The position numbers were made by a program, and so were the translations under genes. The notes beneath the pieces are model-generated. The model ran no database searches and had not been told where the DNA came from. It saw nothing but the letters and a program-made list of their open reading frames with translations. Positions 1,703-36,985 of a DNA stretch of 64,000 bases are shown here, in pieces (positions within the stretch are counted from its first letter, which is position 1; each line of letters opens with the position of its first letter). The stretch lies in IMG/VR virus record IMGVR_UViG_3300045988_149737. One strand, given 5' to 3'. This DNA is from a virus. Lineage: Duplodnaviria; Heunggongvirae; Uroviricota; Caudoviricetes.

Positions 1703-1914
1703 TGGCATTAACACTGGCAGGTCTGGAAATCGAGAAAACAAGCGGCTACTGGCGTGCTAAGGGTTTCAAGCAGCCTGGCATTCTTGAGCGTCTGGAACGT
1801 GAAGATGGGTATATCGTCCACCAGCGGCGTGAATGGCGTATGTACGATCCAGAAACAGGAAAACTGACTACAAAAGCCGGAACACTTTGGGGTCTGTTGA
1901 AGAAAATACACTAA
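1702..1914 (+). CDS. hypothetical protein (70 aa)
   Basis: ORF overlapping the previous stop (ATAATG coupling). Confidence 0.4.
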   Translation: MALTLAGLEIEKTSGYWRAKGFKQPGILERLEREDGYIVHQRREWRMYDPETGKLTTKAGTLWGLLKKIH

Positions 1915-1920
1915 TAGCAC

Positions 1921-2400
1921 CAACCACTGCGGTGAGTAGTCTGCTCACCGCATTCGTATCCAGCTCATTATCCACTGTAGTCAGTAACAAAACCTTCCTA
2001 CATATCTGCTAACCACTGTAGCGAGTAGACAGCCTTTCATTCGCATCAAACAACCACTATGGTGAGTATTGGAGTGAGATGTCCAGCGGGTATCCACTAT
2101 GGTGAGTAAGCCTTTGCTGTTTTCAGTGGATATCCACTCGCCACAGTGGATACGCTCAAAGATGAGGGCGACAACAACCACTATAGACAGTAAATTTTCC
2201 AAGATACCCAGTGACCACTAACCTCGCAGCCCTTGTTTCATCAGTGTTAGTGATCACTAACATTTAATTCAGTATTTGCATTCTACTGCCTACAGTGGTT
2301 ATCAACAGATAACGATACTCACTATAGTGGATAGCGAATTACAGATATAAGTAAGGCTCACTACAGTGGATAGTGAGCCTTACTACTAACTACAGTGGTT
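1921..2400. repeat. Iteron array downstream of repA (about 11 copies of the CCACTATAGTGGATA family, both orientations); incompatibility/control-locus-like
   Basis: Repeated ccactgcggtgagtag, ccactgtagtcagta, ccactatggtgagta, ctcactatagtggatag, ctacagtggtt at roughly 20-45 bp spacing. Confidence 0.6.
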
Positions 2401-2403
2401 GGG

Positions 2404-3459: not shown

Positions 3460-3499
3460 TCCAAATGTCTCTTGTTATTCGACGGCTTTGGTGGCCTTT

Positions 3500-3630
3500 G
3501 CTGATTACAGTGGATAGTAGCACTCATCACAGCGGTTATCCTACCGTCTATAGTGGTTTTTCTCCTCTCTATAGTGGTTGCTTTGCTCCCTATAGTGGAT
3601 TATTCGCTCTCTATAGTGGATATCGATCAT
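3500..3630. repeat. Origin iterons set 1 (about 6 copies of CTATAGTGGAT/T at about 21-bp spacing)
   Basis: ttacagtggata, tcacagcggttat, tctatagtggttt, tctatagtggttg, cctatagtggatt, tctatagtggata. Confidence 0.6.
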
Positions 3631-3893
3631 GTCTGAAGGCAGATGGCACAACGGTTTGAGGTGGGCGGGGATCTTATTGGGTCTTTATGGGTCTCTTTGG
3701 TTCTCTTTGTGATCTGAATTACTGGATCGGGCCTGTGGATAAAAATCAGAGGATTTCAAGAACAGGTAACTCTACTCTTCTGTGGATATTTAAGGACATA
3801 AGAATCATGACTAAGAGTAGAGTTTAAAATATATCTATGTATATCAGTATGTTAATGAAGAATTAAGTCATTAAGTTATCCATAAAAGACAAT

Positions 3894-4015
3894 GTGCTCT
3901 ACTCTCTACAGTGGATATATACAGCTCTCCAGAGTGGTTGTTTTACTCTTCATAGCGGTTATTCAGCTCTCTACAGAGGTTTCTTTGCTCTCCATAGTGG
4001 ATGGCAACACCCTTT
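3894..4015. repeat. Origin iterons set 2 (about 5 copies)
   Basis: ctacagtggatat, ccagagtggttg, tcatagcggtta, ctacagaggttt, ccatagtggatgg at about 22-bp spacing. Confidence 0.55.
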
Positions 4016-4039
4016 CAGACCAGTAACCGCAACGGCTAG

Positions 4040-4115
4040 AGGCGATCGGGGATCTCTTTGGATCTTCTATTTGATCTTACTTGGGATCTCTTATTTGGAT
4101 CTATCCAGTGGATAA
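4040..4115. repeat. GATC-rich direct repeats (GGATCTCTTTGG about 5 copies); likely Dam-methylation cluster of the origin
   Basis: ggatctctttggatcttctatttgatcttacttgggatctcttatttggatct; a related GGGTCTCTTTGG set lies near 3675-3720. Confidence 0.5.
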
Positions 4116-4202
4116 CTGGGATAAGTAAAACAGGCAAATGCAGATTAAGGTATGCCTAATGAGTTATCGTAGCATCGGCCAATAACTACTGAAAAAACGA
4201 TT

Positions 4203-4847
4203 ATGGATCTAAAACGCACGCGCTGGGTTCGTCGTCTTGAGGACGGCTCCTACACTATCGAATCAAATTCCAACCTGAATAAGCAGAAGTTACTTTGTGA
4301 TATCTGCGGTATAGCGGCGAAGTGCCCGATCTACGAAACCAGAATTAAACTTGATAAGGCTGGTGTGAACTTTCATTTGAATAGTTGTATCAGGTACGTT
4401 CCATTGCTCGCATTTCGTAAACCGATCATCGGATTGGATGCGCCCTACTTCAACACACTCCGTTCAGGAGTAACGTGGCGAGATCGTTTATCACCAGACA
4501 AACTGATTTGCCTTGTATCCGCAGATACAGGAAAAATCATTCGTTTTGGGAAAGTAGACAAGGTTTACTCAGGCCCAGTTGACGAGATGTTGCGGAAACA
4601 CAGCCGGTTTAATCACCTCTGCATGGGTGGTGAGAAAATCGAGAAGGTTGAAGAAGTGATCCGCAAATCCTACGGACACTTCCTGACCAAAGATAGCCTG
4701 CTCACTGCAATCTACATCAGACATGTAAAACGTGAGTTCGACCTTGAATACCATAGCGAAGAAGAACTGAACCTTGTCGATCCACGTCCTAAAGCTGGCG
4801 TCATAAGCATAAATGCAGCGCGTAAAAAGCCCACTGACGCGCTGTAA
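4203..4847 (+). CDS. hypothetical protein (214 aa) adjacent to the origin
   Basis: ORF only; no recognisable motif. Confidence 0.5.
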   Translation: MDLKRTRWVRRLEDGSYTIESNSNLNKQKLLCDICGIAAKCPIYETRIKLDKAGVNFHLNSCIRYVPLLAFRKPIIGLDAPYFNTLRSGVTWRDRLSPDKLICLVSADTGKIIRFGKVDKVYSGPVDEMLRKHSRFNHLCMGGEKIEKVEEVIRKSYGHFLTKDSLLTAIYIRHVKREFDLEYHSEEELNLVDPRPKAGVISINAARKKPTDAL

Positions 4848-5101
4848 CCCTCCAGATCGTATATTGGCGTAGATAGAATCTACGCCCCCTCAAAATAGCT
4901 CTCATAGCGTTCTACAGTGATCCTGTCTTATTTTTAGTCATACAGACAAGCAAAGTTGCGCCACGATAAATAGGTATATACTTACTTATAAATTTTGTAT
5001 ATTAAGGCGCTCGTTTCATTCCTAACATACCGTTATGCATAGTTGTTTACCTCCTCATTGCTCTTAGAATTTGTATCAAAATAACCACAAAGGAAAAACA
5101 C

Positions 5102-6187
5102 ATGACTTTGCCATACGGCGTCATTTCTGACTGCCACTACCACAAATGGGATGCGTTCTCCACGACGAACGCTGAGGGGCTTAACTCCAGACTTGAAATA
5201 CAGTTGGAAGCAACGAAAGAAGCAGCCATCGCCATGAAGAAGGCCGGTTGTAAGTACATGTTGGTTGCCGGTGATACATTTCACGTCCGAGGAACTGTGT
5301 CCCCTTCTGTTTTGCATTACGTAACTGAAACGTACAAGTGGATTATCAACGAGCTTGATCTGACAGTAGTAATGCTGGCCGGTAATCACGATCTTGAAAC
5401 CAACGATTCAGTATATAGCGCCAACGCAGCAGCATCGCTGAGTTCTATCGGCGTGGTAATCGTATGTGGCAAGCGCCCACACTCAATAAAAATTGGCGAT
5501 GTGACTGTCCACCTGATTAGCTGGCGTAACAATCATGCGGAGCTTATCAGCGATCTGAAAGCATTACGTAAGAGCGTAGAAGGTGATAATCATGACGTTG
5601 TTATCCATACATCCATTAACAAAGCCATTCCAACAATGCCTGACGTCGGTATCGATGCGCAGGAGTTAAAGGATATCGGCTTTCGTCTCGTGCTTAGTGG
5701 GCATTACCACAACCACAAAGAGGTCATTCCTGGAGTTATCAGTGTCGGTGCACTGACTCATCAAAATTGGGGAGATGTTGGATCTCTGGCTGGCTACATG
5801 ATCGTAAACCCGGACGGCAGTTTCAGTCACTACGAAACCAGTGCGCCTAAATTCATTAACCTGGAAGATGATGTTGCTGATGACCAAATTCGCGGCAACT
5901 ACGTGCGTTTCCGCGCCGTAATTGAGAACGATGAAGAAGGCATTAAGTACCAGAACATCCTCAAAACAATGGGTGCAAAAGGTGTCGTGTGCAACTTCAT
6001 CCGTAAGTCATCAATGATGGAAGGTACAGCCAGCACAACTGAAACCAGCAAAATCGATAGCCTGGGAGAGTCGGTATCTGCTTATTGCAAGATTGTCCAC
6101 GATACTGACGGCGGATTTGATCTGAGCAAATTGGATATTTTGTGTCAGGAAATCCTCACCGAAGCGGAGAGTTCGGAGGCTGTGTGA
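5102..6187 (+). CDS. sbcD: SbcD/Mre11-like nuclease (calcineurin-like phosphoesterase)
   Basis: Phosphoesterase motifs GDTFH, AGNHD and GHYHNH; immediately upstream of an SbcC-like ATPase. Confidence 0.8.
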   Translation: MTLPYGVISDCHYHKWDAFSTTNAEGLNSRLEIQLEATKEAAIAMKKAGCKYMLVAGDTFHVRGTVSPSVLHYVTETYKWIINELDLTVVMLAGNHDLETNDSVYSANAAASLSSIGVVIVCGKRPHSIKIGDVTVHLISWRNNHAELISDLKALRKSVEGDNHDVVIHTSINKAIPTMPDVGIDAQELKDIGFRLVLSGHYHNHKEVIPGVISVGALTHQNWGDVGSLAGYMIVNPDGSFSHYETSAPKFINLEDDVADDQIRGNYVRFRAVIENDEEGIKYQNILKTMGAKGVVCNFIRKSSMMEGTASTTETSKIDSLGESVSAYCKIVHDTDGGFDLSKLDILCQEILTEAESSEAV

Positions 6188-6416
6188 AGCAAAGTCGTTA
6201 TGGGAGCTTTCGAGACTTTGCCATCACGATGAAAAGACTTGAACGAGGCCAGACGGTGATGTTTCACAAGCCCTACCCGCCACAAGGAAATCCCGTAGCG
6301 TTTTATCTTGGAAGGTTAACAAGAAAAGGCGTATTGAGGCGCAGATCCTTCCCGGCGCATACGGAGTTCAGATTGAAAGAAGGCCAAAAGCTAACACGCG
6401 GTATCAGAGGTGTTAT

Positions 6417-8333
6417 ATGAAGTTTTTAAAGCTCCAGGTTGAGAATTTTATGGCTATCGCCAGCGCGGAGGTCGAGTTAGATCAGCGTGGTTTAGTGCTT
6501 ATTCAGGGTGTTAATAGTGATGATAGTTCCGCATCAAGTAATGGCTCTGGAAAGTCAACTCTAATGAATAGCCTGATGTGGTGTCTTTATGGCGAAACAG
6601 CTCATGGTGTGAAGGGTGACGATGTGTTGTCTACCGACCATGAAAAGAACTGTCGTGTTGCAGTAACCATCGAGGATGAAGGCAAGAGATACGCAATCAT
6701 TCGTCACCGTAAACATAAAGAGTTCAAAAATCGTCTTATCGTTCGTGGTGAAGATGGCGATATGACGAAAGGCAAAGATGCGCTGACGCAGGAGTTCGTC
6801 GAGCGTCTGATCGGTGCATCTAAAGAGGTTTTCATGGCTTCCATCTATGCGAGCCAAGAAGCTATGCCAGATTTACCTGGAATGTCCGACAAAAACCTCA
6901 AAACCATCGTAGAAGAAGCCGCTGGCGTTGACAGACTGACACGCGCCTACGCTATTGCTCGTGAGCGAGCTAATGCAGCTGCCGCACGTATGGATGTGGT
7001 TAAAACCAAATTGGAGTCGACAATCTCGACCATTGAGGCAACACAGTCAGAAATTGAGTCAGCGAAAGCCTCCTCTGAATCATGGGAGCAAGAGCGTTCT
7101 AAACGTTATGACGATGCCCTGGCTGGGCTGGCCAGTGCCGAAGTTGAGTTAACGGAAGTTGAACTTGAGATCCGCACTCTTCCCGAACAGATACGTGATA
7201 CCGAGAAGGCAATCGAAAATGAGCGCAAAAAGTTAGCCTCAAAAGAAGAACATGACGCCAAGTTGCTCAAAGTTCGTGGTGCGATAACTGATATTCGGGC
7301 AAGCATCAAAGCTACAGAAAATAGTCAGGCTGATGCAATGACCCGCGCGCGTAATTTTAAGACCAAAGCAGAAGAGGTTGGTACTAAAGTGGGATCACCA
7401 TGCCCTACTTGTGGCAAAGCCTACTGCGAAGAAGATCTATCAACGGTGAAGGAGAGTTTCATTGAACAAGCACGTCAGGAAATTGGTCAGGCTAAGACAC
7501 TTGCAGAGGCAATGGCTAAACACAAAACGAATCTTGAGAAAGCGTTAAGCATTGAGTCTGCCCTTGTTAAAACGACACCTGATGTAACGGCTATCATTGC
7601 CCGGATTGAAGAGCTTACGAAACAACTCTCATCTTTGCGTCATCGTGAGAAGGAGGTTGTTGCTATTGAGTCTCTTGTGACTCGTGCTCGTACTGAGGTC
7701 GATCGTATATCAAAAGAGATTAATCCGTTTATTGCTCTTATCGCCAGACACGAAGATAACCTGGTATCCAGTAAGTCTACCTTCAAGTCCTTAAAAGATG
7801 AGTTGAAGGCTATTCAGGAACAAACGTTGCTATTGGAAAAAGCTCGTCAGGTCTACTCTCCTGCCGGGGTGCGTTCTCATATTTTGACGTCTGTTACGCC
7901 TTTCCTGAATACACTCACAGCCGAATATCTCAATACGTTGTCTGACGGGAACATTACTGCTGAGTGGTCGACGATGGATGTCACTAAAAAAGGTGAGTAT
8001 CGCGACAAATTCAACATTAGTGTGCAGAAGAAAGGTTCAAGTAAGTCGTTCCAAACCCTCTCTGGTGGTGAGAAGCGGAAGGTTCGCATTGCGTGTTCTT
8101 TGGCATTGCAGGATCTGGTTAGTAACCGGGCGAGTAAAAACATCGATTTGTTTATCGGCGACGAAATTGACGATGCACTCGATACAGCCGGTCTTGAACG
8201 CCTCATGGGTATTCTGGAGTCCAAAGCTCGCGAGCGAGGTACTGTGCTGATTATCTCCCATAAAGAGATGAAGTCATGGTTCAGGGAAACTATTACGCTG
8301 GAAGTTAAAGAGGGGCGCAGCTATGTCGTTTAA
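6417..8333 (+). CDS. sbcC: SbcC/Rad50-like ATPase
   Basis: Walker A NGSGKST, long central coiled coil, ABC signature LSGGEKRK, Walker B DLFIGDEIDDALD. Confidence 0.8.
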   Translation: MKFLKLQVENFMAIASAEVELDQRGLVLIQGVNSDDSSASSNGSGKSTLMNSLMWCLYGETAHGVKGDDVLSTDHEKNCRVAVTIEDEGKRYAIIRHRKHKEFKNRLIVRGEDGDMTKGKDALTQEFVERLIGASKEVFMASIYASQEAMPDLPGMSDKNLKTIVEEAAGVDRLTRAYAIARERANAAAARMDVVKTKLESTISTIEATQSEIESAKASSESWEQERSKRYDDALAGLASAEVELTEVELEIRTLPEQIRDTEKAIENERKKLASKEEHDAKLLKVRGAITDIRASIKATENSQADAMTRARNFKTKAEEVGTKVGSPCPTCGKAYCEEDLSTVKESFIEQARQEIGQAKTLAEAMAKHKTNLEKALSIESALVKTTPDVTAIIARIEELTKQLSSLRHREKEVVAIESLVTRARTEVDRISKEINPFIALIARHEDNLVSSKSTFKSLKDELKAIQEQTLLLEKARQVYSPAGVRSHILTSVTPFLNTLTAEYLNTLSDGNITAEWSTMDVTKKGEYRDKFNISVQKKGSSKSFQTLSGGEKRKVRIACSLALQDLVSNRASKNIDLFIGDEIDDALDTAGLERLMGILESKARERGTVLIISHKEMKSWFRETITLEVKEGRSYVV

Positions 8334-9066
8334 ATTAAGCCGCTCGCAGTTTTTGCAGGTATTTGCAGTGATGCAGTCGATAAAACTGATCAATGGGCAT
8401 ACTTCCAATGGTGCGGCTCCACGTATTCTGTGGGGCAGCAACAATATTGACGGAGTACAATTCGCCGCGTTGCTTGGTCTAATATCCGAGACACCATTGA
8501 TGCAAAGTTTGAAATCACTACCACCTGGATGTATTGCGCCGATCCTGATTAATCCTTTTGTTGAGGGGGGATATCTTCCCAACGTCGGGCCTGGGTTTAT
8601 TGCATCCCATGAAACTGAAGATCTTAACATTAATAGCGAAGGGTTCTTTGGGGGAATGGGTGCGCATCACTGTATGGCTTTCACGAACCTTATTCGACTT
8701 GCCAATAAGCGGGTGGATAGTTTGGCATCGCCAGGTGATGCTTTTACTGGTTTCCTTATCCAAAGGAGGGATAAAAAGTACAGTGCGGACAAACTACAGT
8801 TTGTTGGTAAGTATGGGGAAATGGTGGAAATCGAACTTCAGCTCCCTCATGTTTTAGCAAACGATAGTGCAGACAGTCGGAGGCTGTTGGGCATCATGCG
8901 TCATTTCATAGCAAGTGGCGTTAAACATGCCGTAGATAAACGTGTCACGCAGGAAAATGAGTATTCAGACTTTGCAAACTATCCCCAACCAACGTTGCAA
9001 ACGGCAATAGTAACCAATTCGTTGGAGGCGAGATTATTGGAAAACCCTATATGGGGAACATGGTAA
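8323..9066 (+). CDS. hypothetical protein (247 aa)
   Basis: ORF translationally coupled to sbcC. Confidence 0.5.
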   Translation: MSFKLSRSQFLQVFAVMQSIKLINGHTSNGAAPRILWGSNNIDGVQFAALLGLISETPLMQSLKSLPPGCIAPILINPFVEGGYLPNVGPGFIASHETEDLNINSEGFFGGMGAHHCMAFTNLIRLANKRVDSLASPGDAFTGFLIQRRDKKYSADKLQFVGKYGEMVEIELQLPHVLANDSADSRRLLGIMRHFIASGVKHAVDKRVTQENEYSDFANYPQPTLQTAIVTNSLEARLLENPIWGTW

Positions 9067-9075
9067 GGAGACTAT

Positions 9076-9645
9076 ATGAGTAAAAAAATCAGCGTAGTTG
9101 GTGTTGATCCCTCAATGAGCAACTTTGGGCTTGCTGTGGGCACTTTAGACCTTGAAACGGACGAACTTGAGATTCACGGCCTTACTCTTGTTGAGACTAA
9201 AGCGGGGAGTAACAAAAAGACCGTTCGTGTGAACAGTGACGATCTGCGCCGTGCCAGTGAAATATGGCGTGTTGCGAAGCCAATCATTGATAAGGCAAAT
9301 ATGGTTTTTTGTGAGCTACCGGTTGGGAGCCAAAACTCTCGTTCGCAGACGTCTTACGGTATTTGCATCGGTGTACTTGCGTGCGTAGATAAGCCATTGA
9401 TCCAGGTTACTCCAAACGAAATTAAACATTTTATCGGCAATAAACTTACAACATCGAAAGAAGAGATTATCCAGTGGGCTACGAAAAAACACCCTAAAGC
9501 ACCGTGGCTGCGTCGTAAGCAATCTGGACAGGATGTTCTCGTGAACAAAAACGAACATTTGGCTGATGCGGTGGCTGCCATCCATACCGGTATGCAAACA
9601 GATCAGTTTCGCCAGGTGCGCGATGTTCTCAAGTCTCTCATTTGA
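9076..9645 (+). CDS. RuvC-like Holliday junction resolvase
   Basis: RNase H-fold motifs VVGVDPS...FGLAV, CELPVG, EHLADAVAA (D/E/D catalytic pattern). Confidence 0.6.
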   Translation: MSKKISVVGVDPSMSNFGLAVGTLDLETDELEIHGLTLVETKAGSNKKTVRVNSDDLRRASEIWRVAKPIIDKANMVFCELPVGSQNSRSQTSYGICIGVLACVDKPLIQVTPNEIKHFIGNKLTTSKEEIIQWATKKHPKAPWLRRKQSGQDVLVNKNEHLADAVAAIHTGMQTDQFRQVRDVLKSLI

Positions 9646-9718
9646 TCTCATTGATAGGTAAGTGCTTATCTATTAATATGGGCCACTAAATATAGTGGCC
9701 CTCTTTATTTGGTGATAC

Positions 9719-12034
9719 ATGATAAGCATCGTAAAACGTAACGGCCAAACAGAGCCGTTATCCGAAGATAAATACAACCGCGTCGTAATGTATGGCGTAG
9801 AAGACATTCGTGGCGTAAGCGCATCCGCTGTAGCAATGGGAGCTGCGGCCAGCATTTTTGATGGGATTACCACCAGCCAGTTGCATGAGGCTTTGGTTAA
9901 ATCTGCCGCTGATTTGATCTCACCAGAAGCACCAAATTACTCACAGGTGGCTGCCCGCCTGAACATTTTTAAAATTCGCAAAGATGCCTTCGGTCGTTAC
10001 GACTATCCGAACTTCTACCAACACATTGTCAAGAACGTTAACAAGGGCGTTTATGACAAGGATTTGCTGACACATTATTCATTTGAAGAGATCGAAGAAC
10101 TCGGCAATTACATTAAGCCTAAACGTGACGATCTTTTTGGCTATGCAGCTACGGTGCAATTGCAAAGCAAATACCTCGTTCAAAACCGCGTTACTGGTGA
10201 GATTCATGAGGGGCCGCAACATATCTATATGCTGGTAGGCATGTGTCTGTTCCAGAATTGGGAAGACGACTGCGCTGGCAAAACACGTATGGAGATGGTC
10301 AAAGGTTTCTATGACGTTACAAGTACGTTCAAACTGTCTCTGCCCACACCAATCATGGCCGGCGTCCGTACTCCAACCCGTCAGTTCTCCAGTTGTGTGC
10401 TGATTGAGTCTGGCGATAGTCTGAAAGGGATTAGTGCAGCTTCAGCCGCAATTATCGACTACGTTTCACGTCGTGCTGGAATTGGTATTGGTTTTGGCCG
10501 TATCCGTGCGCTGGGCAGCGAGATCCGCAATGGTGAAGCCACACATACCGGAGTTACTCCATTCCTGAAGCATTTCCAGACGGCTGTTAAATCTTGTTCG
10601 CAAGGTGGTGTTCGTGGTGGCGCAGCAACAGCGTTTTACCCGATCTGGCATCTTGAAGTTGAAAGTCTGCTGGTGGTGAAAAATAACCGTGGTATTGATG
10701 AAAACCGCGTTCGCCATCTTGATTACGGCGTCATGAGTAACCGTCTGATGTACCGTCGACTCGTCAGAAGCGAGAACATCACTCTGTTCAGCCCGCATGA
10801 TGTGCCTGATATGTACGAAGCCTTCTTCACAGACCAGGATCTGTTTGAAAAGCTGTACCATGAATACGAAGCCGATGATTCAATTCGCAAGAAGTCAGTA
10901 CCTGCCATTGAGCTGTTCTCATCTCTGATGCAGGAACGAGCGTCCACGGGCCGAATTTATATTGCGAACGTCGATCATATTAACGAGCATGGCGCTTTCA
11001 TTCCTGCTCTTGCACCTGTTCGCCAGTCAAACCTGTGCATGGAGATCACTCTACCCACTCGTCCACTGGCATTTACCGACGACCCGAACGGTGAGATCGC
11101 GCTTTGCACTTTATCCGCTTTTAACCTCGGAGCCATCCGTTCACTGGAGTCTCTTAAAGAGGTGGCGTTCTATGCCGTTGCTGCACTGGATTCGTTACTG
11201 GATTATCAAGACTATCCGATGGAGGCAGCCGAAGTGCCAGCCAAAGCTCGCCGTAGCCTGGGAATCGGTGTAACCAACTTTGCTTATTACCTGGCAAAGA
11301 ATGGCGTTCGTTATTCTGATACCGCTGGCAATAAACTGGTGCATGAAACGTTCGAAGCTATCCAGTATTACCTTCTTGATGCCAGCTGCCGACTTGCTGA
11401 AGCAAAAGGTGAGTGTGACTGGTTTGAGCAGACCAAGTACGCAATTGGTCAGTTGCCGATCGACCATTATCGTTCTTCATTAGACGAAAGTGGCGAAACC
11501 AACTTTGAGTTAAAGATGCCGTGGGAAGAACTGCGTGAACGTATTGCAAAATACGGTCTTCGCAACTCCACACTGACGGCACAAATGCCATGCGAGACTT
11601 CCAGCCAGATCACTAATTCCACCAACGGCATCGAGCCGCCTCGTGGCCCGGTGTCGGTGAAATCTTCTAAGGACGGCATCGTTAAGATGGTCGTGCCTGA
11701 GTTTGAAAAACTGAAGGAACAGTATGAATACCTGTGGGATATGCCGGACAACCGCGGCTATCTGACAAAGGTGGCGATCATCCAGAAGTTCTTTGACCAG
11801 GCTATTTCAGCCAATACCAACTATGACCCTTCTCGCTTTGAAGGCGATAAAGTCCCAATGATGACGCTACTGTCAGATTTGCTTCTCGCCTACAAGATGG
11901 GAGTTAAAACGCTTTACTACCACAACACCAGAGATGGTGCAGGAAAGCGTGATGACGACGAAGCGCAGAATCCACTTACGCAAGCTGTAGCCGTCGAGCC
12001 AGAAGATGAGTGCGACGGAGCCTGCAAAATCTGA
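9719..12034 (+). CDS. nrdA: Ribonucleoside-diphosphate reductase large subunit (class I)
   Basis: 771 aa; N-terminal ATP-cone-like region and long conserved stretches of class Ia alpha subunit; followed by an nrdB-like gene. Confidence 0.9.
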   Translation: MISIVKRNGQTEPLSEDKYNRVVMYGVEDIRGVSASAVAMGAAASIFDGITTSQLHEALVKSAADLISPEAPNYSQVAARLNIFKIRKDAFGRYDYPNFYQHIVKNVNKGVYDKDLLTHYSFEEIEELGNYIKPKRDDLFGYAATVQLQSKYLVQNRVTGEIHEGPQHIYMLVGMCLFQNWEDDCAGKTRMEMVKGFYDVTSTFKLSLPTPIMAGVRTPTRQFSSCVLIESGDSLKGISAASAAIIDYVSRRAGIGIGFGRIRALGSEIRNGEATHTGVTPFLKHFQTAVKSCSQGGVRGGAATAFYPIWHLEVESLLVVKNNRGIDENRVRHLDYGVMSNRLMYRRLVRSENITLFSPHDVPDMYEAFFTDQDLFEKLYHEYEADDSIRKKSVPAIELFSSLMQERASTGRIYIANVDHINEHGAFIPALAPVRQSNLCMEITLPTRPLAFTDDPNGEIALCTLSAFNLGAIRSLESLKEVAFYAVAALDSLLDYQDYPMEAAEVPAKARRSLGIGVTNFAYYLAKNGVRYSDTAGNKLVHETFEAIQYYLLDASCRLAEAKGECDWFEQTKYAIGQLPIDHYRSSLDESGETNFELKMPWEELRERIAKYGLRNSTLTAQMPCETSSQITNSTNGIEPPRGPVSVKSSKDGIVKMVVPEFEKLKEQYEYLWDMPDNRGYLTKVAIIQKFFDQAISANTNYDPSRFEGDKVPMMTLLSDLLLAYKMGVKTLYYHNTRDGAGKRDDDEAQNPLTQAVAVEPEDECDGACKI

Positions 12035-12134
12035 CATATGGTGGGGTATATCCCCACCTTATCTTTGATTTGTAAGCCTTGTTTAAACACATAAGATAAC
12101 AACTTGTTTAAACACATCAAAAAAGGAAAAACAC

Positions 12135-13277
12135 ATGTCATATTCAACGTTCCGTTTGGGTGCTAATGATGCAACCAAAGAGCCTATGTTCCTCGGACAA
12201 TCTGTCAACGTGGCACGTTACGATCAGCAAAAATACCGTGATTTTGAAAAGTTGATTGAACGTCAATTGTCTTTCTTCTGGCGGCCGGAAGAAGTTGATA
12301 TTTCGAGCGATCGTATCGACTTCAACACGAAGCTGCGAGACCACGAACGTCACATTTTTCTGAGCAATCTCCGTTATCAAACGTTACTCGATTCAGTTCA
12401 GGGACGTAGCCCAAATGCAACGCTGCTGCCGCTTATCTCTATTCCTGAACTGGAAACGTGGGTTGAAACATGGTCTTTCTCTGAGACTATCCATAGCCGC
12501 AGCTACACCCACATTATTCGTGGCATGGTGGACGATCCGAGCATTGTTTTTGACGGTATTGTTACGGATGAAGAAATCATCAACCGAGCGATCAGTATCT
12601 CTGCTGAATATGACAGGCTTTATGGGATGACCTGCGAGCGCCAGTCGTTAGGTGAGAAAGAGTTTGAACGTCTGTACGTAAATGAATATGGCTGGGAGCC
12701 ATACCCTTTGCATCGTCAGCTTTTCCGCACGTTGGTGTCCATTAATGCGCTTGAGGCGATCCGTTTCTATGTAAGTTTTGCATGTACGTTTGCCTTTGGC
12801 GAACGGAAGTTGCTTGAGGGTAACACCAAAATTATGCGCTTTATTGCCCGTGATGAAGCTCTGCATTGCGAAGGAACTGAACGCATGATCCGCTTCATGC
12901 GTACCGGTCGCGAAGGTTTATTGTGGAAAGAGATTGCTGCTGATGAAGAAAACGTCATTTACGACACCATGAAATCAGTCGCCGAACAAGAAATGAACTG
13001 GGCAGACTATCTCTTCAAAGACGGTTCGATGATTGGTTTAAACGCGGATATTCTGAAGACCTATGTAAAATACCGAACCAATCTGGCTATGAATCGTCTT
13101 GGCCTGAAGGCTTTATTTCCAGAAGTTACCACAGATCCGCTGGTCTGGATGAACAAGTGGTTGTTAACCGACACACTGCAAATTGCACCACAAGAGGCAG
13201 AGCAAAGCACATATCTGGTAGGTCAGATCGATTCTACCGTGGATAAGGCTTCTCTAAGCCAGTTTGCAGACCTGTAA
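12135..13277 (+). CDS. nrdB: Ribonucleoside-diphosphate reductase small subunit (class I)
   Basis: 380 aa, di-iron/tyrosyl radical family features; directly downstream of nrdA. Confidence 0.85.
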
Positions 13278-13354
13278 ACCGATACAAAGCATTATGTGGC
13301 CTGGCAACGCTGGGTCACAATGGATCACAAGAATTAAGAAGGAACAAAACTAGC

Positions 13355-14224
13355 ATGAACTTTACCAAACTGACTGACCACCTGAAACTTGCCACCGATC
13401 GACTCATTGGATTTAAGCCAGAACCATATGAGTTGCATGAAGGCCATGGTGTAGCCACTGAAAGTATTTACAAGATGGTCGATCAGTTTCATGAACTCTT
13501 CCAGCATCCGAGACGCGTTATGCCGACACCAGAGCTGCTTCGTCTCCGTGCAAGCCTGATTCATGAAGAAGCTGTAGTGGAAGGGATTCCAGCCGCAATG
13601 AATGGGGATATTGAGCAACTGCTGGATGCAATGGCCGACTTTTTATACGTTGGTGTTGGTACGATGGTCTCCATCAAAGGTGGTATTTCTACCGGCATGA
13701 CCTATTACACGCAGGAACAGAGCATTGATCGCTTTATGCAGACAATTTTTGTGCCCGGTAACACTGTTTTCGATGATATGGCAATGCCATTTCAGGAAGC
13801 TCGTGAGGCGTCATGTATGCTCGAAGAGCTGGCAGATAAACTTGAGAAGAAGGCTGTTAAGGATTCTGAGCTGATTCAGGAACTGCGCCGTGTAATGAAC
13901 AAAATCTATGTGGCGTGCATGATGACTTATCGACTGGCTGATTTCCTCGGTATCAATGTCGTCGAGCTGGTTGGCGAAATTCATCGGTCTAACATGACAA
14001 AATTATGGCCTGCTGATGTTGAGGAACGTCGCCAGGCTGTGGCCAACTGCAAATACGACTCTTCAGATCTGGGATTCCGCCATGCTGATGGCACCGATAA
14101 GATGATCGGTTTTCGAATTTCCGATGGAAAGATTCTGAAGTCTCCAACCTATAGTGATGTCGATTTATCCTCCTTTGTTGAGCAAGCTAAAGCCTCAGCA
14201 ATGTACGGAATGATCAAAAAATAA
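13355..14224 (+). CDS. hypothetical protein; possible all-alpha NTP pyrophosphohydrolase (MazG/dimeric-dUTPase-like)
   Basis: Real ORF in the nucleotide-metabolism cluster; EGHG...ELLRLRASLIHEEAVVEG and EQLLDAMADFLYV resemble MazG/HisE-type motifs (weak, by eye). Confidence 0.45.
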   Translation: MNFTKLTDHLKLATDRLIGFKPEPYELHEGHGVATESIYKMVDQFHELFQHPRRVMPTPELLRLRASLIHEEAVVEGIPAAMNGDIEQLLDAMADFLYVGVGTMVSIKGGISTGMTYYTQEQSIDRFMQTIFVPGNTVFDDMAMPFQEAREASCMLEELADKLEKKAVKDSELIQELRRVMNKIYVACMMTYRLADFLGINVVELVGEIHRSNMTKLWPADVEERRQAVANCKYDSSDLGFRHADGTDKMIGFRISDGKILKSPTYSDVDLSSFVEQAKASAMYGMIKK

Positions 14225-14394
14225 TTGTAGGTAGTTATCTATCTATGTATATTTAACATGCGTAATAAAACTCTGGAATGACTATTCGTTTTGGTGGCCT
14301 ATGGCCACCATTTTTTTATCTGTCTGGTCTTGTTCTCTCAATGAATGTAAACTCACATGATGAATAAGTAATTACTTATCTTTGTGAGGTTTTT

Positions 14395-15498
14395 GTGTCA
14401 CTACTTTTGAATCGAGAGCATACGAACGGTCAGGTAACAAACGCATCGTATGCAAAAGTTATTGAGACGGTGCTTAAAAGCGGCGTGCAGGCTGATGATC
14501 GCACAGGCACTGGTACTTTAAGCACCTGCTACGTTCCCTCTTATTACATGCTTACTGGTGGGACTGTGCCGCTTATTTCTGGAAAGGCGGTAAATCTTAA
14601 GCCACTGCTTGTCGAACTTGAGTGGTATCTGAAAGGCACGGGCAACATCCAATTTCTCAAGGATAACGGCGTTAAGATTTGGGATGCATGGGCCGATGAG
14701 AATGGCGATTTGGGGCCGGTTTACGGTAAGCAGTGGCGTCGATGGGAAGATACCCGCATCGTGAGCCATAGTGAATATCTGAGCAAGATCGCTACTTTCC
14801 GTGAACGCGGGTACAAAGTCGAGGGATACCTGGGTATCAGTGAAGATCGCGTAGTGCTGTCCCGTGAAATCGATCAGCTACAGCGTATTGTCGATACACT
14901 GCGCACGAACCCTACCGATCGTCGCATCATGCTTAACGCATGGAACGTAGGCGAGCTTGAGGATATGAAACTGCCACCTTGCCACTTTGTCTTCTCTTTG
15001 TGGAGTCGTGAGCTGGATTTTGAAACCCGTTTAACGATGGCAACTGACATTGGTCTTCAACACAGTCGCCTCGGTTACGAGTCTATCTACACCAAGATGC
15101 TATACGATCTGGAGGTGGACGGCAGTGTTACTGAAGCTGAACTGGATGAACTTGGAATCCCCAAACGCATCCTCAACTCCTGCCTCGTACAGCGTAGCGT
15201 AGACACTTTTGTTGGTATGCCATTCAATATTGCTGGCTATGGCATTCTCACTCATTTTCTCGCGAAGATTACGGGTCACATGGCCGGTGCATTTGTGCAT
15301 TTTGGCTTTGACGTGCATTTGTACAACAACCACATGGAAGGTGTGTGTGAGCTAATGAAACGACAGGCTCCAGAGCATTCAGATCCGGTCGTTATTTTCC
15401 CTCATGAATGGTCAGAGTTGGATGATTTCAAATGGGACGAGGTTTTAATTCTTGGCTATGACCCTCTATCGTGGATCAAGGTTCCAGTGGCGGTGTGA
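14395..15498 (+). CDS. thyA: Thymidylate synthase (ThyA family), atypically long, GTG start
   Basis: Motifs GPVYGKQWRRW, PPCHFVF (catalytic Cys), DTFVGMPFNIAGY; about 45-aa insertion after the catalytic Cys region. Confidence 0.8.
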   Translation: MSLLLNREHTNGQVTNASYAKVIETVLKSGVQADDRTGTGTLSTCYVPSYYMLTGGTVPLISGKAVNLKPLLVELEWYLKGTGNIQFLKDNGVKIWDAWADENGDLGPVYGKQWRRWEDTRIVSHSEYLSKIATFRERGYKVEGYLGISEDRVVLSREIDQLQRIVDTLRTNPTDRRIMLNAWNVGELEDMKLPPCHFVFSLWSRELDFETRLTMATDIGLQHSRLGYESIYTKMLYDLEVDGSVTEAELDELGIPKRILNSCLVQRSVDTFVGMPFNIAGYGILTHFLAKITGHMAGAFVHFGFDVHLYNNHMEGVCELMKRQAPEHSDPVVIFPHEWSELDDFKWDEVLILGYDPLSWIKVPVAV

Positions 15499-31516: not shown

Positions 31517-31536
31517 TACTGTATGTATATACAGTG
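31517..31536. promoter_or_regulatory. LexA (SOS) box
   Basis: tactgtatgtatatacagtg matches CTGT-N8-ACAG, 17 nt upstream of the umuD'-like ATG. Confidence 0.7.
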
Positions 31537-31552: not shown

Positions 31553-31942
31553 ATGGGCTTCCCTTCTCCTGCGGCGGATTATGCTGAGAGCCGTATTTCT
31601 CTTGATCAGCAGATAATTAGACATCCTTCAGCGACCTACTTCATGAGGGCAGCTGATAGTCATCATCGTGAGGGAATATTACAGGGTGCATTGCTGGTGG
31701 TCGATTCCTCACTTACCCCGGTTGATGGTTCTCTGCTTGTATGCGCTCTGGATGGGGAATATCGCGTAAAAAGATACCGGAAGTATCCACGTCAGCATCT
31801 GGAGGATTTAAGAACCGGTAAGAAGGAAGCATTGCCAAAGGATGACGATGGATGCACGGGCAGCAATGCCGTGTTTGGTGTGATCACTCACATTATCAAC
31901 GACGCAAGAAGTGGCGAGTTTGATGATTGTCCCGTGATGTAG
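31553..31942 (+). CDS. umuD: UmuD'-like S24 peptidase-family protein lacking the N-terminal pro-segment
   Basis: Begins MGFPSPAADY, matching the UmuD region immediately after its Cys24-Gly25 autocleavage site; conserved Ser (AADSH) and Lys (RVKRYRK) at catalytic positions; in-frame stop 15 nt upstream excludes a longer N-terminus. Confidence 0.7.
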   Translation: MGFPSPAADYAESRISLDQQIIRHPSATYFMRAADSHHREGILQGALLVVDSSLTPVDGSLLVCALDGEYRVKRYRKYPRQHLEDLRTGKKEALPKDDDGCTGSNAVFGVITHIINDARSGEFDDCPVM

Positions 31943-31951
31943 GAGAACTGA

Positions 31952-31979
31952 TTAGGCGGTGCATTGCACCGCCTTTTTA
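31952..31979. terminator. Bidirectional terminator shared by umuD'-like and apbC
   Basis: aggcggtgcattgcaccgcct hairpin followed by ttttt. Confidence 0.55.
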
Positions 31980-33080
31980 TCACACTGCGCGGAATGCGAT
32001 TTCGCCAGGTATTACTTCACCTTGCCAATACATTTGGGCAGCAACGCGATCTGCGAGGTCACGATAAATAGCCGTAAATTCGCTATCTGGACGACTAATA
32101 ACGGTTGGTGTTCCGTTATCCAGATCTTCACGAAGTGAGATATGAAGTGGCATTTGGCCTAACAACAGCGTGTTGTATTTCTCGGCCAGTTTCTGTGCGC
32201 CACCAGTGCCAAAAATTGGCTCGTGATGACCGCAGTTACTGCAAATATGCACACTCATGTTTTCGACGATACCCAGTACCGGCACTTCGACTTTTTCGAA
32301 CATCACAATGCCTTTCTTCGCATCGATCAGCGCGATGTCTTGCGGCGTAGTTACCACAACCGCACCAGTTACAGGAATGTTCTGCGCCAGCGTCAACTGA
32401 ATATCACCAGTGCCCGGCGGCATATCGAGAACGAGATAGTCCAGATCAGGCCACAGTGTTTCTTGCAACATTTGCATCAACGCCTTGCTCGCCATAGGGC
32501 CACGCCACACCATCGCGTTGTCGTCAGTGACCAGATAACCAATTGAATTGGTTGCCAGGCCATGAGACATAATAGGTGCCATGTGAGTACCGTCTGGTGA
32601 GGTTGGACGTTGGTTTTCCGCGCCCAGCATGGTTGGAATTGATGGCCCGTAGATATCGGCATCAAGAATGCCAACTTTCGCACCTTCAGCGGCTAACGCC
32701 AGCGCAAGGTTTACCGCCGTGGAAGATTTACCTACCCCACCCTTGCCTGAGCTGACGGCGATAATGTTCTTAACGCCATTAATGCCTGGTTGGTTTTTAA
32801 CGCGCTTCAGCGTGGCAATGTTGTGAGACAGCTTCCAGTCGATAGCCTTTGCACCAGTGATACGGAGCAGATCACCACTACATTGCTCTTTCAGGTCTTC
32901 AAAAGGCTTATTCCACACGAAAGGCATGATTAGTTCGACATGCAGTGTGTCATCCATCAACGCAACATGGTGTAACGCTTTAAGCGTAGTCAGGTTGTGT
33001 TTCAGGGTTGGGTGCTGAAAATTAGCCAGCGTACCGGCTACCATTGCTCTCAGGGCATCCGGCGATTTGGACTCGCTCAT
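31980..33080 (-). CDS. apbC: Fe-S cluster carrier ATPase ApbC/Mrp
   Basis: Full-length match by eye to enterobacterial ApbC/Mrp (deviant Walker A SGKGGVGKS, CxxC motif ICSNCGH). Confidence 0.9.
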   Translation of the reverse strand: MSESKSPDALRAMVAGTLANFQHPTLKHNLTTLKALHHVALMDDTLHVELIMPFVWNKPFEDLKEQCSGDLLRITGAKAIDWKLSHNIATLKRVKNQPGINGVKNIIAVSSGKGGVGKSSTAVNLALALAAEGAKVGILDADIYGPSIPTMLGAENQRPTSPDGTHMAPIMSHGLATNSIGYLVTDDNAMVWRGPMASKALMQMLQETLWPDLDYLVLDMPPGTGDIQLTLAQNIPVTGAVVVTTPQDIALIDAKKGIVMFEKVEVPVLGIVENMSVHICSNCGHHEPIFGTGGAQKLAEKYNTLLLGQMPLHISLREDLDNGTPTVISRPDSEFTAIYRDLADRVAAQMYWQGEVIPGEIAFRAV

Positions 33081-33237
33081 CCCGTCTCCTTTATTTTAAT
33101 TTGCGCAATTGTCGCCTTGTAGTGTACTCCAGCTACGACATTTAATCATTTATGAGAAATGCTGTTATCACATGGCAGACATAAGGCCATTTTGTTACTA
33201 TCAAGCCCCTTTTCACTACAAAGAAGTAATGCCTACT

Positions 33238-35271
33238 ATGACCCAAGTCGCGAAGAAAATTCTGGTGACGTGCGCGCTGCCGTACGCTAACGGCTCAATC
33301 CACCTCGGCCATATGCTGGAGCACATCCAGGCTGATGTCTGGGTTCGTTACCAGCGAATGCGCGGCCACGAGGTTAATTTCATCTGTGCCGACGATGCCC
33401 ACGGTACGCCGATCATGCTGAAAGCACAGCAGCTTGGTATCACACCGGAGCAGATGATTGGCGAAATGAGTCAGGAACACCAGACTGATTTCGCAGGCTT
33501 TAACATCAGCTATGACAACTATCACTCGACGCACAGCGAAGAGAACCGTCAGTTGTCTGAGCTTATCTATACTCGCCTGAAAGAGAACGGTTTTATTAAA
33601 AACCGCACTATCTCTCAGTTGTACGACCCGGAAAAAGGCATGTTCCTGCCGGATCGTTTTGTAAAAGGCACCTGCCCGAAATGTAAAGCGCCAGATCAAT
33701 ACGGCGATAACTGTGAAGTCTGCGGCGCAACATATAGCCCGACTGAATTGATCGAGCCGAAATCGGTGGTTTCTGGCGCTACCCCGGTAATGCGTGATTC
33801 CGAACACTTCTTCTTTGATCTGCCTTCTTTCAGCGAAATGCTGCAGGCATGGACCCGCAGCGGCGCGTTGCAGGAGCAGGTGGCGAACAAAATGCAGGAA
33901 TGGTTTGAATCCGGCCTGCAACAGTGGGATATCTCCCGCGATGCGCCTTACTTCGGTTTTGAAATTCCGAACGCGCCGGGCAAATATTTCTACGTCTGGC
34001 TGGACGCGCCGATTGGCTACATGGGTTCCTTCAAGAATCTGTGCGACAAGCGCGGCGATACCACCAGCTTCGATGAATACTGGAAGAAAGACTCCACCGC
34101 CGAGCTGTACCACTTCATCGGTAAAGATATTGTTTACTTCCACAGCCTGTTCTGGCCTGCCATGCTGGAAGGCAGCAACTTCCGCAAGCCGACCAACCTG
34201 TTTGTTCATGGCTATGTGACGGTGAACGGCGCGAAGATGTCCAAGTCTCGCGGCACGTTCATTAAAGCCAGCACCTGGCTGAATCATTTTGACGCTGATA
34301 GCTTGCGCTACTACTACACCGCGAAACTCTCTTCGCGCATCGATGATATCGACCTGAACCTGGAAGATTTCGTTCAGCGCGTGAATGCCGATATCGTCAA
34401 CAAAGTGGTTAACCTGGCCTCCCGTAATGCAGGCTTTATCAACAAGCGTTTTGACGGCGTGCTGGCAAGCGAACTGGCTGACCCTGAACTGTACAAAACC
34501 TTTACCGATGCCGCTGAAGTGATTGGCGAAGCATGGGAAAGCCGCGAATTTGGTAAAGCTATCCGTGAAATCATGGCATTGGCTGACCTGGCTAACCGCT
34601 ATGTCGATGAACAGGCTCCGTGGGTGGTGGCGAAGCAGGAAGGTCGCGATGCCGATCTGCAAGCGATTTGCTCTATGGGCATTAACCTGTTCCGCGTGCT
34701 GATGACGTACCTGAAACCGGTACTGCCGAAACTGACTGAACGTGCGGAAGCGTTCCTGAATACGGAACTGACCTGGGATGGTATCCAGCAACCGCTGCTG
34801 GCACATAAAGTGAATCCGTTCAAAGCACTGTATAACCGCATCGACATGAAGCAGGTTGAAGCACTGGTGGAAGCATCCAAAGAAGAAGTGAAAGCCACCG
34901 CCGCGCCAGTTACTGGCCCGCTGGCTGATGATCCGATTCAGGAAACCATCACCTTTGACGACTTCGCCAAAGTTGACCTGCGTGTGGCACTGATTGAAAA
35001 CGCGGAGTTTGTTGAAGGCTCTGACAAACTGCTGCGTCTGACACTGGATCTCGGTGGTGAAAAGCGTAATGTCTTCTCCGGCATCCGTTCTGCTTATCCA
35101 GACCCACAGGCACTGATTGGTCGTCACACCATTATGGTGGCTAACCTGGCTCCGCGTAAAATGCGCTTCGGTATCTCCGAAGGCATGGTGATGGCTGCTG
35201 GCCCTGGCGGAAAAGACATCTTCCTGTTAAGCCCGGATGCCGGTGCTAAACCAGGCCACCAAGTTAAGTAA
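33238..35271 (+). CDS. metG: Methionine--tRNA ligase
   Basis: 677 aa from [26 protein letters not shown] (HIGH motif), KMSKS motif present, zinc-binding CPKC...CEVC; start moved from upstream ATG to canonical MTQ. Confidence 0.9.
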
Positions 35272-35290
35272 CTAAACAATCATTCTTCAC

Positions 35291-35318
35291 AATGCCCGGC
35301 AACACGCTGGGCATTTTC
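35291..35318 (+). terminator. Rho-independent terminator after metG
   Basis: atgcccggcaacacgctgggcat followed by tttcat. Confidence 0.5.
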
Positions 35319-35424
35319 ATATAGACACAATCCCTCCTGATTTACACAATCCCTAAAACAATTTGTTTTCTACCTTTTGTTGATTGAGATAATAAGCCAC
35401 ATAAGAAAACAAATTGTTTAGGAG

Positions 35425-35673
35425 ATGAAGATGTTTGGAACAGCAAAAGAAATCATCGAGAAACTGAAAAACTATCCAGAAGACGAACCCTTACTCATGG
35501 TTATGTGGCACAAAGAAGATATTGCTGAAGTAAGGACAGATCTCACTGATGAACAATGCGTACAGGTGATGCAAAAAATCAGACAATGCCATAACGCTGA
35601 TGTCGGCGTTAATTGGGAGGTTATATCCACTACGGCGAATGAGTTGTTTCCAAACGGGGAGAGGGGATGTTAA
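35425..35673 (+). CDS. hypothetical small early protein (82 aa)
   Basis: Preceded by two AAACAA-N-TTGTTT elements and a ggag RBS. Confidence 0.5.
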   Translation: MKMFGTAKEIIEKLKNYPEDEPLLMVMWHKEDIAEVRTDLTDEQCVQVMQKIRQCHNADVGVNWEVISTTANELFPNGERGC

Positions 35674-35966: not shown

Positions 35967-36104
35967 ATCTGAAAACATATTCAAACCGTTGATAATGGCG
36001 GTCACAATTTGATTCTTTTCTATAAGAATCCGTTGATCGCCACTACCCCCATTCCATACCCGCAATCACATCCTTAAATTTCAATAAGTTATAGTTGTTT
36101 ATAC

Positions 36105-36985
36105 AATCAAGAAAACAACTGAATAACAGATCAACGAAACATCAACGCTTTCACCCGATTTGGTCTAAAAAATTGACGTTTTCACACATCACTGCTTATA
36201 CCCGTAATCCCACGCAGCAGATAGCGCCACAGCGTCCAAATTTCACCACAGACGACCCAACACACTACCAACAAAAACACACGCTCAAAATCGCTCTCGT
36301 TGCGTTACACAACCATATAAACAACTTATTTTCAGGCATAACAAAACAACTAAATAACACATGTGCCATTACCAAAAACAACCAACCTCTTTATGGCAGG
36401 CTACCGAAAAGACCCACCTCTTCTTCCCAGGCTACCGGACAACCAACCTAACTTTCACAGGCAATCCGAAAACATTCATACGCGCGATACCCACGACACG
36501 CCATTCCCCAAACAGCGAAGAAACACCAGAATCACTGAAACCCCAACGAAGCCTGTAACCGCAAGGATTCTCTCAATCCCAAAAGACACGAAACAGAACA
36601 ATCACGGGAAACGCCATTACCCAATACACGAATAACTACAAAAGCCTTTCACACACTCCAGACAAACAACTCAAACACAATAACGAAAGGAATCGCCCAC
36701 CTGCCATTACTCCATACACGGAGAAGAACAATCACCAAAACGACGAGAACACCCCATAGAAGAACCACTGCAAAACGAACGAAACCACATACACCGACAG
36801 AGAGAACAACACACCCAATTCACCAACAGAAATAGTCGCCGTATAGAACATTCTGGAAGGAGTGAGCATTAACGCCTATAGAGAGGTTGAAACAGATAAA
36901 ACACGAAGAAAACACAACATGTATAGCGAAGAAGCCAGGTATGTATAAGTGGGGAGGGAAGGAGGGGTGTCGCCTCCTTTTTCGT
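36105..36985 (+). ncRNA. Candidate long A+C-rich, G-poor non-coding RNA
   Basis: About 780 nt where the + strand is roughly 75-80 percent A+C (by eye); promoter-like motif at about 36070-36115 upstream and a terminator hairpin aaggaggggtgtcgcctcc plus ttttt at about 36950-36985; no minus-strand ORFs. Confidence 0.25.

Follow-up and report, generated by a model that had tools for sequence, protein, structure and literature searches.

Why a tailed phage should carry two host housekeeping genes is the question raised by the 64,000-nt stretch of DNA analyzed here (IMG/VR record IMGVR_UViG_3300045988_149737, Caudoviricetes; the whole stretch is called the window below). Between phage modules, the window holds a divergent gene pair, apbC (also called mrp), which encodes an iron-sulfur cluster carrier, and metG, which encodes methionine-tRNA ligase (MetRS). 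The first-pass annotation of this DNA had considered a genuine captured host segment, a cointegrate junction, and an assembly chimera. Our best explanation, to which we assign a probability of roughly 80%, is that an old captured apbC-metG pair occupies an accessory-gene slot of a phage-plasmid as a moron cassette, is maintained by selection, undergoes gene conversion with the chromosome, and brings the antibiotic-survival benefit reported for such genes. The anatomy, junctions, recurrence, intactness, selection, mosaic origin, and conversion tracts were established in the present analysis; what is said on expression, copies per cell, the making of virions, and tolerance comes from published work.

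The 3.4-kb segment carries the divergent open reading frames (ORFs) that the first-pass annotation had described, and both are intact (Table 1). The ApbC protein scored 756 bits against NF008669 (cutoff, 348 bits; residues 2–366) and has the deviant Walker A P-loop GKGGVGKS and the C-terminal CSNC (CxxC) motif that characterize ApbC/Mrp proteins. Its start makes it three residues shorter than the chromosomal protein, and it carries clade-specific N-terminal substitutions such as W44L. For metG, the program-listed ORF begins at a TTG at position 33109, which is an upstream extension of the conserved ATG at 33238. The encoded protein scored 1019 bits against the MetRS model NF001100 (cutoff, 587 bits) and 163 bits against the C-terminal domain model TIGR00399, and it has the HLGH and KMSKS motifs, a CPKC...CEVC zinc knuckle, the C-terminal tRNA-binding domain, and the ETIT segment of a class I MetG enzyme. 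Ten amino acids differ from the Escherichia coli K-12 enzyme (98.5% identity); these lie outside HIGH/KMSKS and the zinc knuckle, and most are ancestral enterobacterial states. The window metG allele is identical to no database copy (best match, 97.8%), and its product lacks the substitutions G134C, A410T, and D565E of the Australian Shigella sonnei copy. A 610-codon open frame runs antisense to metG (33295–35127, minus strand); nothing supports it as a gene, and the codon composition of metG most likely accounts for it.

The cassette follows the humD stop codon and precedes the operator/promoter of the next phage operon. In pTB212 (NZ_CP033252.1), a sister plasmid without the cassette, homology to the window ends at 31942, the last base of humD, and restarts at 35342; the boundaries originally drawn at 31943 and 35330 were accurate to 11 bp. 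At this place pTB212 has an unrelated 744-nt DUF4145 gene (locus L084, 4576–5319). The insertion site acts as a slot for accessory genes and separates two phage transcription units. Homology to the mrp-metG locus of E. coli K-12 covers 31984–35271 at 87.8% identity, that is, both coding regions and the spacer and nothing further, in agreement with the enterobacterial look noted at first reading. The comparison of base composition that the same reading had proposed gave a GC content of 51.0% for the cassette versus 46.3% for the rest of the window. No transposon- or integrase-like sequences were found at the cassette flanks. The chromosomal mrp-metG locus of Enterobacteriaceae shows the same divergent pair, with protein lengths within three residues and proteins matching at the equivalog level; however, its flanking genes yehE and yehF/DUF4132 are missing from the cassette, and the intergenic region is only 67% identical.

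The segment had also been said to carry its native terminators. Stable hairpins are indeed present at both ends, but no homology of either one to the chromosomal flanks was detectable, and the left one faces the direction of humD: because its T-run lies on the plus strand, it is predicted to terminate humD rather than apbC. The observation that the same phage motif families occur on both sides of the cassette was borne out. The 13-nt palindrome AAACAA-N-TTGTTT (AAACAANTTGTTT) has seven copies versus 0.02 expected in the window, to the left and right of the cassette but nowhere within it (positions 366, 22313, 23042, 35356, 35407, 38378, and 49659), and it resembles an operator for a phage-plasmid regulator. 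The matches at 35356 and 35407 belong to an inverted-repeat pair with arms at 35349–35371 and 35404–35426. A second motif, TAGGTAAGT, has five copies versus 0.16 expected, again flanking the cassette on both sides with none inside; its copies, on both strands, are at 9655, 19209, 21416, 26395, and 51598. An Rfam scan of the entire window matched no family, and a tRNA scan of the window found none, with no cognate tRNA-Met beside metG.

Judged by its sequence matches, the window probably comes from an SSU5-like phage-plasmid in the Escherichia/Shigella clade to which Cyrano/pLF82, the pECOH89-type plasmids, and S. sonnei plasmids belong. Its region from 49.6 to 64 kb aligned with positions 1–14474 of phage SSU5 at 81.4% identity (terminase, portal, capsid, and tape measure) and with Escherichia phage Cyrano at 98.3%; this is the siphovirus structural and packaging module that marks the SSU5 supergroup. 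The 24 kb around the cassette were 96 to 98% identical to many plasmids of 105 to 114 kb from E. coli, Shigella, and Escherichia albertii, including p7.2.1, a pECOH89-type plasmid from sequence type 131 (ST131), and NC_023916.1 of E. coli H89. The close relatives are circular and typed as IncFIB or rep_cluster_488, and the window itself covers only 64 kb. The family prototypes SSU5 and Salmonella Typhi plasmid pHCM2 resemble the window in the structural module (about 81% identity) and in a conserved noncoding element downstream of the cassette slot, but the apbC-metG cassette was not detected in them, and neither is among the cassette matches.

The best-characterized relative is Cyrano, which is plasmid pLF82 of the adherent-invasive E. 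coli strain LF82 (both records, 108,379 bp). It has been described as an SSU5-like phage-plasmid with 5.5 copies per cell, virions giving a quantitative PCR signal 32-fold over contamination, and 39-fold induction by ciprofloxacin (PMC9928086). Virion production is thus experimental for this 97%-identical relative, and the window element is known from sequence. Cyrano has the same backbone and the same humD-apbC-metG arrangement, with a cassette 97.0% identical to that of the window; its small downstream genes are slightly unlike those of the window. In its record (OV696614.1), apbC (CYRAN_99; locus L001, 6979–8079) is labeled "septum site-determining protein MinD" and is listed as such among the LF82 morons. 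This label is a misannotation, since the ApbC score is 756 bits and the MinD models fall far below their cutoffs.

The cassette was present in 203 of 5426 complete E. coli genomes (about 4%), in about 200 of the 208 matching PLSDB plasmids (188 of them at 95–99% identity), and in four phage records, namely Cyrano, CMS-2020a (two records), and PhiR41_1, the last deposited as a phage with K-12 MG1655 as its listed host. The S. sonnei plasmid copies in PLSDB were at the same site, with 95.6 to 96.9% identity. The exact 30-nt left junction was found in 24 IMG/VR contigs, and a cassette-specific intergenic 22-mer in 16 metagenome contigs, all in a phage-plasmid context, with no chromosomal source of the 22-mer in the metagenome scan. 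The left junction after humD was constant wherever the flank was examined, and the downstream backbone was constant in long contigs. The recurrence of one cassette with one junction across these collections settles the initial question in favor of a genuine captured segment. The first-pass annotation had also proposed asking whether the chromosomal copy is intact: the chromosomal apbC-metG locus was kept in all 5426 complete E. coli genomes (5425 with at least 80% coverage), which together hold apbC-metG at 5428 chromosomal places and 221 places on plasmids. Because the chromosomal locus is retained in every complete genome, the plasmid pair is always extra.

The two genes differ in their relationship to chromosomal sequences. 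The nucleotide identity of apbC was approximately 82% to E. coli and to Citrobacter werkmanii and approximately 80% to Salmonella and Kluyvera, whereas that of metG was 93 to 96% to E. coli, 87 to 88% to Citrobacter species, and 86 to 87% to Salmonella and Kluyvera. Similarly, ApbC is 94 to 95% identical to the protein of each of Escherichia, Salmonella, and Citrobacter, whereas MetRS is 98.5 to 99% identical to Escherichia and 95 to 96% to Salmonella and Citrobacter. The synonymous divergence (dS) of apbC was 1.5 to 2.8 to every genus, with Escherichia, Citrobacter, and Salmonella equally distant (about 1.6); the reference value between E. coli and Salmonella is 1.34. For metG, dS to E. coli was 0.35, compared with 0.28 between K-12 and Escherichia sp. 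E1V33. In the intergenic region, identity is 67% with K-12 and 76% with Citrobacter, and the first 120 nt of metG differ at three sites only; the switch in divergence sits at the metG start. Among the sister plasmids, the intergenic region is 99 to 100% conserved in most and 95.5% in the Escherichia marmotae plasmid. The GC content at third codon positions (GC3) of apbC was 0.505 to 0.536 in all phage-plasmid copies (0.51 in the window) versus 0.60 to 0.78 in the chromosomal orthologs examined, and that of metG was 0.60 to 0.62, the Escherichia value. In a donor scan with one genome per species, no chromosome exceeded 82.3% identity to apbC among the best 80 loci. The closest metG loci among these, at 93.1 to 93.2%, were those of Escherichia sp. 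E1V33 and of "Enterobacter hormaechei B56," and the latter sequence tracks E. coli K-12.

These results show that the histories of apbC and metG are discordant and that the cassette is a mosaic. On the simplest reading, the pair was captured long ago from a lineage that is unsampled and lies close to the Escherichia-Salmonella-Citrobacter group, after which apbC may have drifted slowly to the base composition of the phage and metG may have been overwritten by, or replaced from, Escherichia sequence. The description of the segment as "host" DNA therefore needs qualification: an enterobacterial capture is upheld, but apbC comes from no sampled Escherichia chromosome, and the capture is old.

Gene conversion was scored at 101 metG sites at which the majority allele of the phage-plasmids differs from the majority allele of five E. 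coli chromosomes. Long, uninterrupted tracts of chromosomal alleles were found in the metG copies of three sister plasmids, p7.2.1, that of E. albertii 2014C-4015, and that of S. sonnei AUSMDU00010534 (Table 1; permutation p = 0.0003 for each), a pattern that indicates recurrent gene conversion. Conversion by host chromosomal sequence accordingly explains the variability of plasmid metG reported in the literature. With the ST131 chromosome of its present host lineage, the p7.2.1 tract shares only 94.8% identity; since the tracts match chromosomes of lineages other than that of the present host, the plasmids have moved between lineages after conversion. The window metG carries chromosomal alleles at 9 of the 101 sites and is nearly pure plasmid type; its apbC contains a short patch of K-12 alleles (Table 1) that is probably a gene conversion in the window copy. 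The E1V33 and O157 chromosomes contain stretches of plasmid-type alleles (p = 0.006–0.007), which hint at plasmid-to-chromosome transfer but could equally be shared ancestral polymorphism. We tentatively raise the possibility, which we consider clearly less likely than the explanation given at the outset, that the phage-plasmid is a shuttle that exchanges sequence with the essential chromosomal metG, possibly both ways, then passes from one Escherichia lineage to another and so spreads alleles of this gene across E. coli, Shigella, E. albertii, and E. marmotae, and that the old, ameliorated, and nearly invariant ApbC is perhaps a cargo at least as important as MetRS. Published work appears to ignore the ApbC cargo. 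More generally, the findings suggest how homologous cargo of phage-plasmids can remain host-like and carry alleles of essential genes across lineages.

Both genes are under strong purifying selection. The ratio of nonsynonymous to synonymous divergence (dN/dS) was approximately 0.02 for both genes relative to their chromosomal orthologs and 0 to 0.045 among the phage-plasmid copies, at dS values of 0.12 to 0.36. Most pairs of sister copies showed no amino acid change in ApbC at dS 0.12 to 0.2, and across E. coli, S. sonnei, E. albertii, and E. marmotae, seven plasmids whose apbC sequences differ by 2 to 4% at the DNA level are annotated with one and the same ApbC protein (WP_000004356.1). Only one fragmented metG was present among the full-length phage-plasmid matches listed, and since indels occur in apbC of the same assembly, a sequencing error is suggested. 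The strength of this selection indicates that the genes are used on the element and are not junk.

With regard to function, a phage-plasmid-borne metG is an already described cargo and is standard for this clade. The plasmid metG of S. sonnei has been tied to antimicrobial survival by Tam et al. 2024 (medRxiv 10.1101/2024.10.27.24316207), according to the statements of PMC12452169 that cite that work; its expression is reported there to predispose a subpopulation to third-generation cephalosporin resistance. The plasmid concerned, pWPMR2, has been placed in clade K of the SSU5 supergroup; a considerable share of S. sonnei isolates carry it, and it occurs also in E. coli clonal complexes CC131, CC23, and CC73 (bioRxiv 10.1101/2025.09.12.675607). 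Compared by description, the window resembles pWPMR2-type phage-plasmids as an SSU5-supergroup element with a second, variable metG. Lesions in metG and lowered metG expression are established routes to persistence (PMC11004401). In LF82 grown to stationary phase in lysogeny broth, Cyrano apbC was expressed at about 92 units, 9-fold above background, and was called a moron (PMC9928086). The remark in the first-pass annotation that a phage with its own Met-tRNA ligase would be notable was right as to the gene, but such a metG had already been published; the additions of the present analysis are the mosaic origin, the selection on apbC as well as metG, and the gene conversion.

On this basis, the moron cassette may work as follows. 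The slot between humD and the next phage operon would hold the old apbC-metG capture, which brings an intergenic promoter region of its own and a hairpin at each end. The slot position, the hairpins, and the absence of the pair from SSU5 and pTB212 would suit a moron, an accessory gene that a prophage expresses autonomously. A lysogen would gain an extra MetRS that is catalytically intact and an extra ApbC, both at the copy number of the plasmid. The host-similar metG would repeatedly convert with the resident chromosomal metG, giving mosaic and variable plasmid alleles, and expression of the auxiliary metG would produce an antibiotic-surviving subpopulation with a predisposition to cephalosporin resistance, which would favor carriage of the element. 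We infer that the window allele has the same tolerance phenotype. Given the ties to antibiotic survival and to resistant Shigella lineages, recognition of the cassette in sequence data would be a clinically relevant annotation.

Several points weigh against this explanation. The tolerance phenotype is known through the summaries given in citing papers, and why an extra, nearly wild-type MetRS should cause persistence stays unexplained; the window enzyme is intact at ETIT (569–572) and at G263/S264, the sites of classical tolerance lesions. A consensus promoter scan of the cassette gave counts not above the shuffled expectation and nothing convincing in the intergenic region. In the LF82 data, Cyrano metG (CYRAN_100) reached only about 16 units against a background of about 10, or about 1.6-fold, and was not called a moron (PMC9928086), although this value may be too low if reads that also fit the 94%-identical chromosomal gene were discarded.

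The alternative that survives best is that MetRS, with or without ApbC, boosts translation and the charging of Met-tRNA while virions are being made, a role that has been proposed for the synthetases of large phages and giant viruses. The location of the cassette in an early/accessory region beside the SOS-controlled humD fits this idea, as does the fact that the element is a working phage in the form of ciprofloxacin-induced Cyrano (PMC9928086). We nevertheless consider it unlikely. A divergent promoter region belongs to the cassette itself, and the strong left hairpin insulates it from humD; in the S1 table of the LF82 study, humD climbs strongly in the later columns, whose conditions were not identified, and metG does not. 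Moreover, SSU5, pHCM2, and Klebsiella relatives complete the same life cycle without the cassette, and apbC is expressed in the lysogen.

It is considerably less probable that the cassette is a selectively neutral hitchhiker, a chunk of chromosome acquired by illegitimate recombination that has not yet decayed. The flanks without any transposon or integrase trace and the unrelated cargo in the slot of the sister plasmid would agree with such an accident. However, copies that have diverged this far at synonymous sites have accumulated almost no protein changes, and only the single fragmented metG was seen. The apbC GC3 has moved to phage-like values while the protein stayed intact, and for apbC the low dN/dS cannot be an artifact of conversion.

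Plasmid addiction, in which the captured essential gene allows chromosomal metG to be lost or crippled and the element becomes indispensable, is very improbable, even though metG is essential and the plasmid copy is intact. The full chromosomal locus is universal in complete E. coli genomes, and essential-gene replacement was rejected for this reason.

Equally improbable is a drug- or toxin-insensitive synthetase comparable to the plasmid-borne mupirocin-resistant isoleucyl-tRNA synthetase MupA. Mobile second copies of aminoacyl-tRNA synthetases are often resistance determinants elsewhere, and the MupA/MupB enzymes and the synthetases of giant phages and viruses share with the window the encoding of a second synthetase by a mobile element. 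In contrast to these, the window enzyme is a nearly identical host ortholog and not a divergent paralog: it scores as an ordinary MetG equivalog, its few substitutions relative to K-12 avoid the motifs and the zinc knuckle and are mostly ancestral, and the MupA/MupB models gave only 33 bits against a cutoff of 1900.

Finally, although the GC content of the cassette is unlike that of its flanks, a chromosome-shared repeat can confuse assemblers, and the IMG/VR locus L105 has plasmid- and chromosomal-type pieces split by single Ns, an assembly chimera and a one-off cointegrate junction are ruled out as nearly as can be, because the junctions recur in independent complete plasmids, phage records, and metagenome contigs that together number in the hundreds and because apbC (82%) and the intergenic region (67%) are unlike any E. 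coli chromosome and so cannot be contaminating host reads. L105 (IMGVR_UViG_2671181056_000013) was considered as a tandem of plasmid and chromosomal cassettes and was rejected on account of the single-N separators; its arrangement is probably a scaffold or storage join arising from the metG repeat, although plasmid-chromosome recombination could in principle produce it.

Table 1. Features of the apbC-metG cassette and its surroundings, in window coordinates; the last three rows describe tracts in metG copies of sister plasmids
Feature	Position	Strand	Evidence and remarks
Canonical LexA (SOS) box TACTGTATGTATATACAGT	31517–31535		Upstream of humD; palindrome exact on plus strand, one mismatch on minus strand; 0.07 expected by chance
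humD (UmuD-like S24 peptidase), last backbone gene before cassette	31553–31942	+	NCBIfam HumD equivalog, 220 bits (cutoff, 120)
Captured apbC-metG cassette in cargo slot	31943–35341		Without counterpart in sister plasmid pTB212; 3.4 kb; GC shift
GC-rich hairpin followed by T-run	31954–31974	+	Terminator scan; −18.6 kcal/mol, z −5.3; just past apbC stop codon
apbC/mrp, iron-sulfur cluster carrier, 366 aa, intact	31980–33080	−	Translation; NCBIfam equivalog; motifs
Probable gene-conversion patch inside apbC	32471–32562		Seven consecutive informative sites with K-12 allele; permutation p = 0.0002
Divergent intergenic (promoter) region	33081–33237		Conservation among sister plasmids
metG, methionine-tRNA ligase, 677 aa, intact	33238–35271	+	Translation; NCBIfam equivalog; motifs
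Terminator-like hairpin after metG	35291–35315	+	10-bp stem followed by UUUUCAU; −16.9 kcal/mol, z −5.2
Backbone restart: 23-nt inverted-repeat pair with two AAACAA-N-TTGTTT palindromes	35349–35426		Just upstream of ORF 35425–35673
Chromosomal-allele tract, p7.2.1 (from ST131)	33720–34900		53/101 chromosomal alleles; 99.66% to strain Ec-U1; 94.1% to unconverted plasmid allele
Chromosomal-allele tract, E. albertii 2014C-4015	33600–34070		24/101 chromosomal alleles; 99.36% to ST131-type allele; 91.9% to unconverted plasmid allele
Chromosomal-allele tract, S. sonnei AUSMDU00010534	33560–34010		27/101 chromosomal alleles; 98.9% to K-12; 93.8% to unconverted plasmid allele

With regard to the neighbors of the slot, the humD segment shares 86 to 87% identity with its counterparts in P1, P7, and SJ46, which are unrelated phage-plasmids, so that humD is itself a module common to phage-plasmid families. 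The 166-kb E. marmotae plasmid NZ_CP146383.1 (locus L089, 3279–4751) has an intact der gene (ribosome-biogenesis GTPase, 490 aa) beside apbC, in the place that humD occupies in the window, which indicates that the slot can gather further translation-related host genes. The DUF4145 cargo of pTB212 gave only a weak match in a defense library (PD-T7-4, 21.5 bits), too weak for the slot to be regarded as a defense hotspot, and that idea was rejected.

Downstream of the slot, approximately 900 nt (35980–36900) are free of genes and A+C-rich on the plus strand (GC skew, −0.32; AT skew, +0.34). The sequence CTGCCATTAC was considered as an iteron in this region and rejected, as it was not clearly enriched (7 copies versus 3.4 expected). 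Because the region has no Rfam match and its composition cannot self-pair, a structured RNA seems less likely here than a DNA-level site (an origin, a pac site, or a protein-binding array). A core of approximately 170 nt (36690–36860) is about 90% conserved in pHCM2, Cronobacter plasmid pCS1, and Enterobacter and Citrobacter plasmids, compared with about 80% for the coding backbone, and in these SSU5-like plasmids the core falls within an unannotated gap of approximately 1.4 kb.

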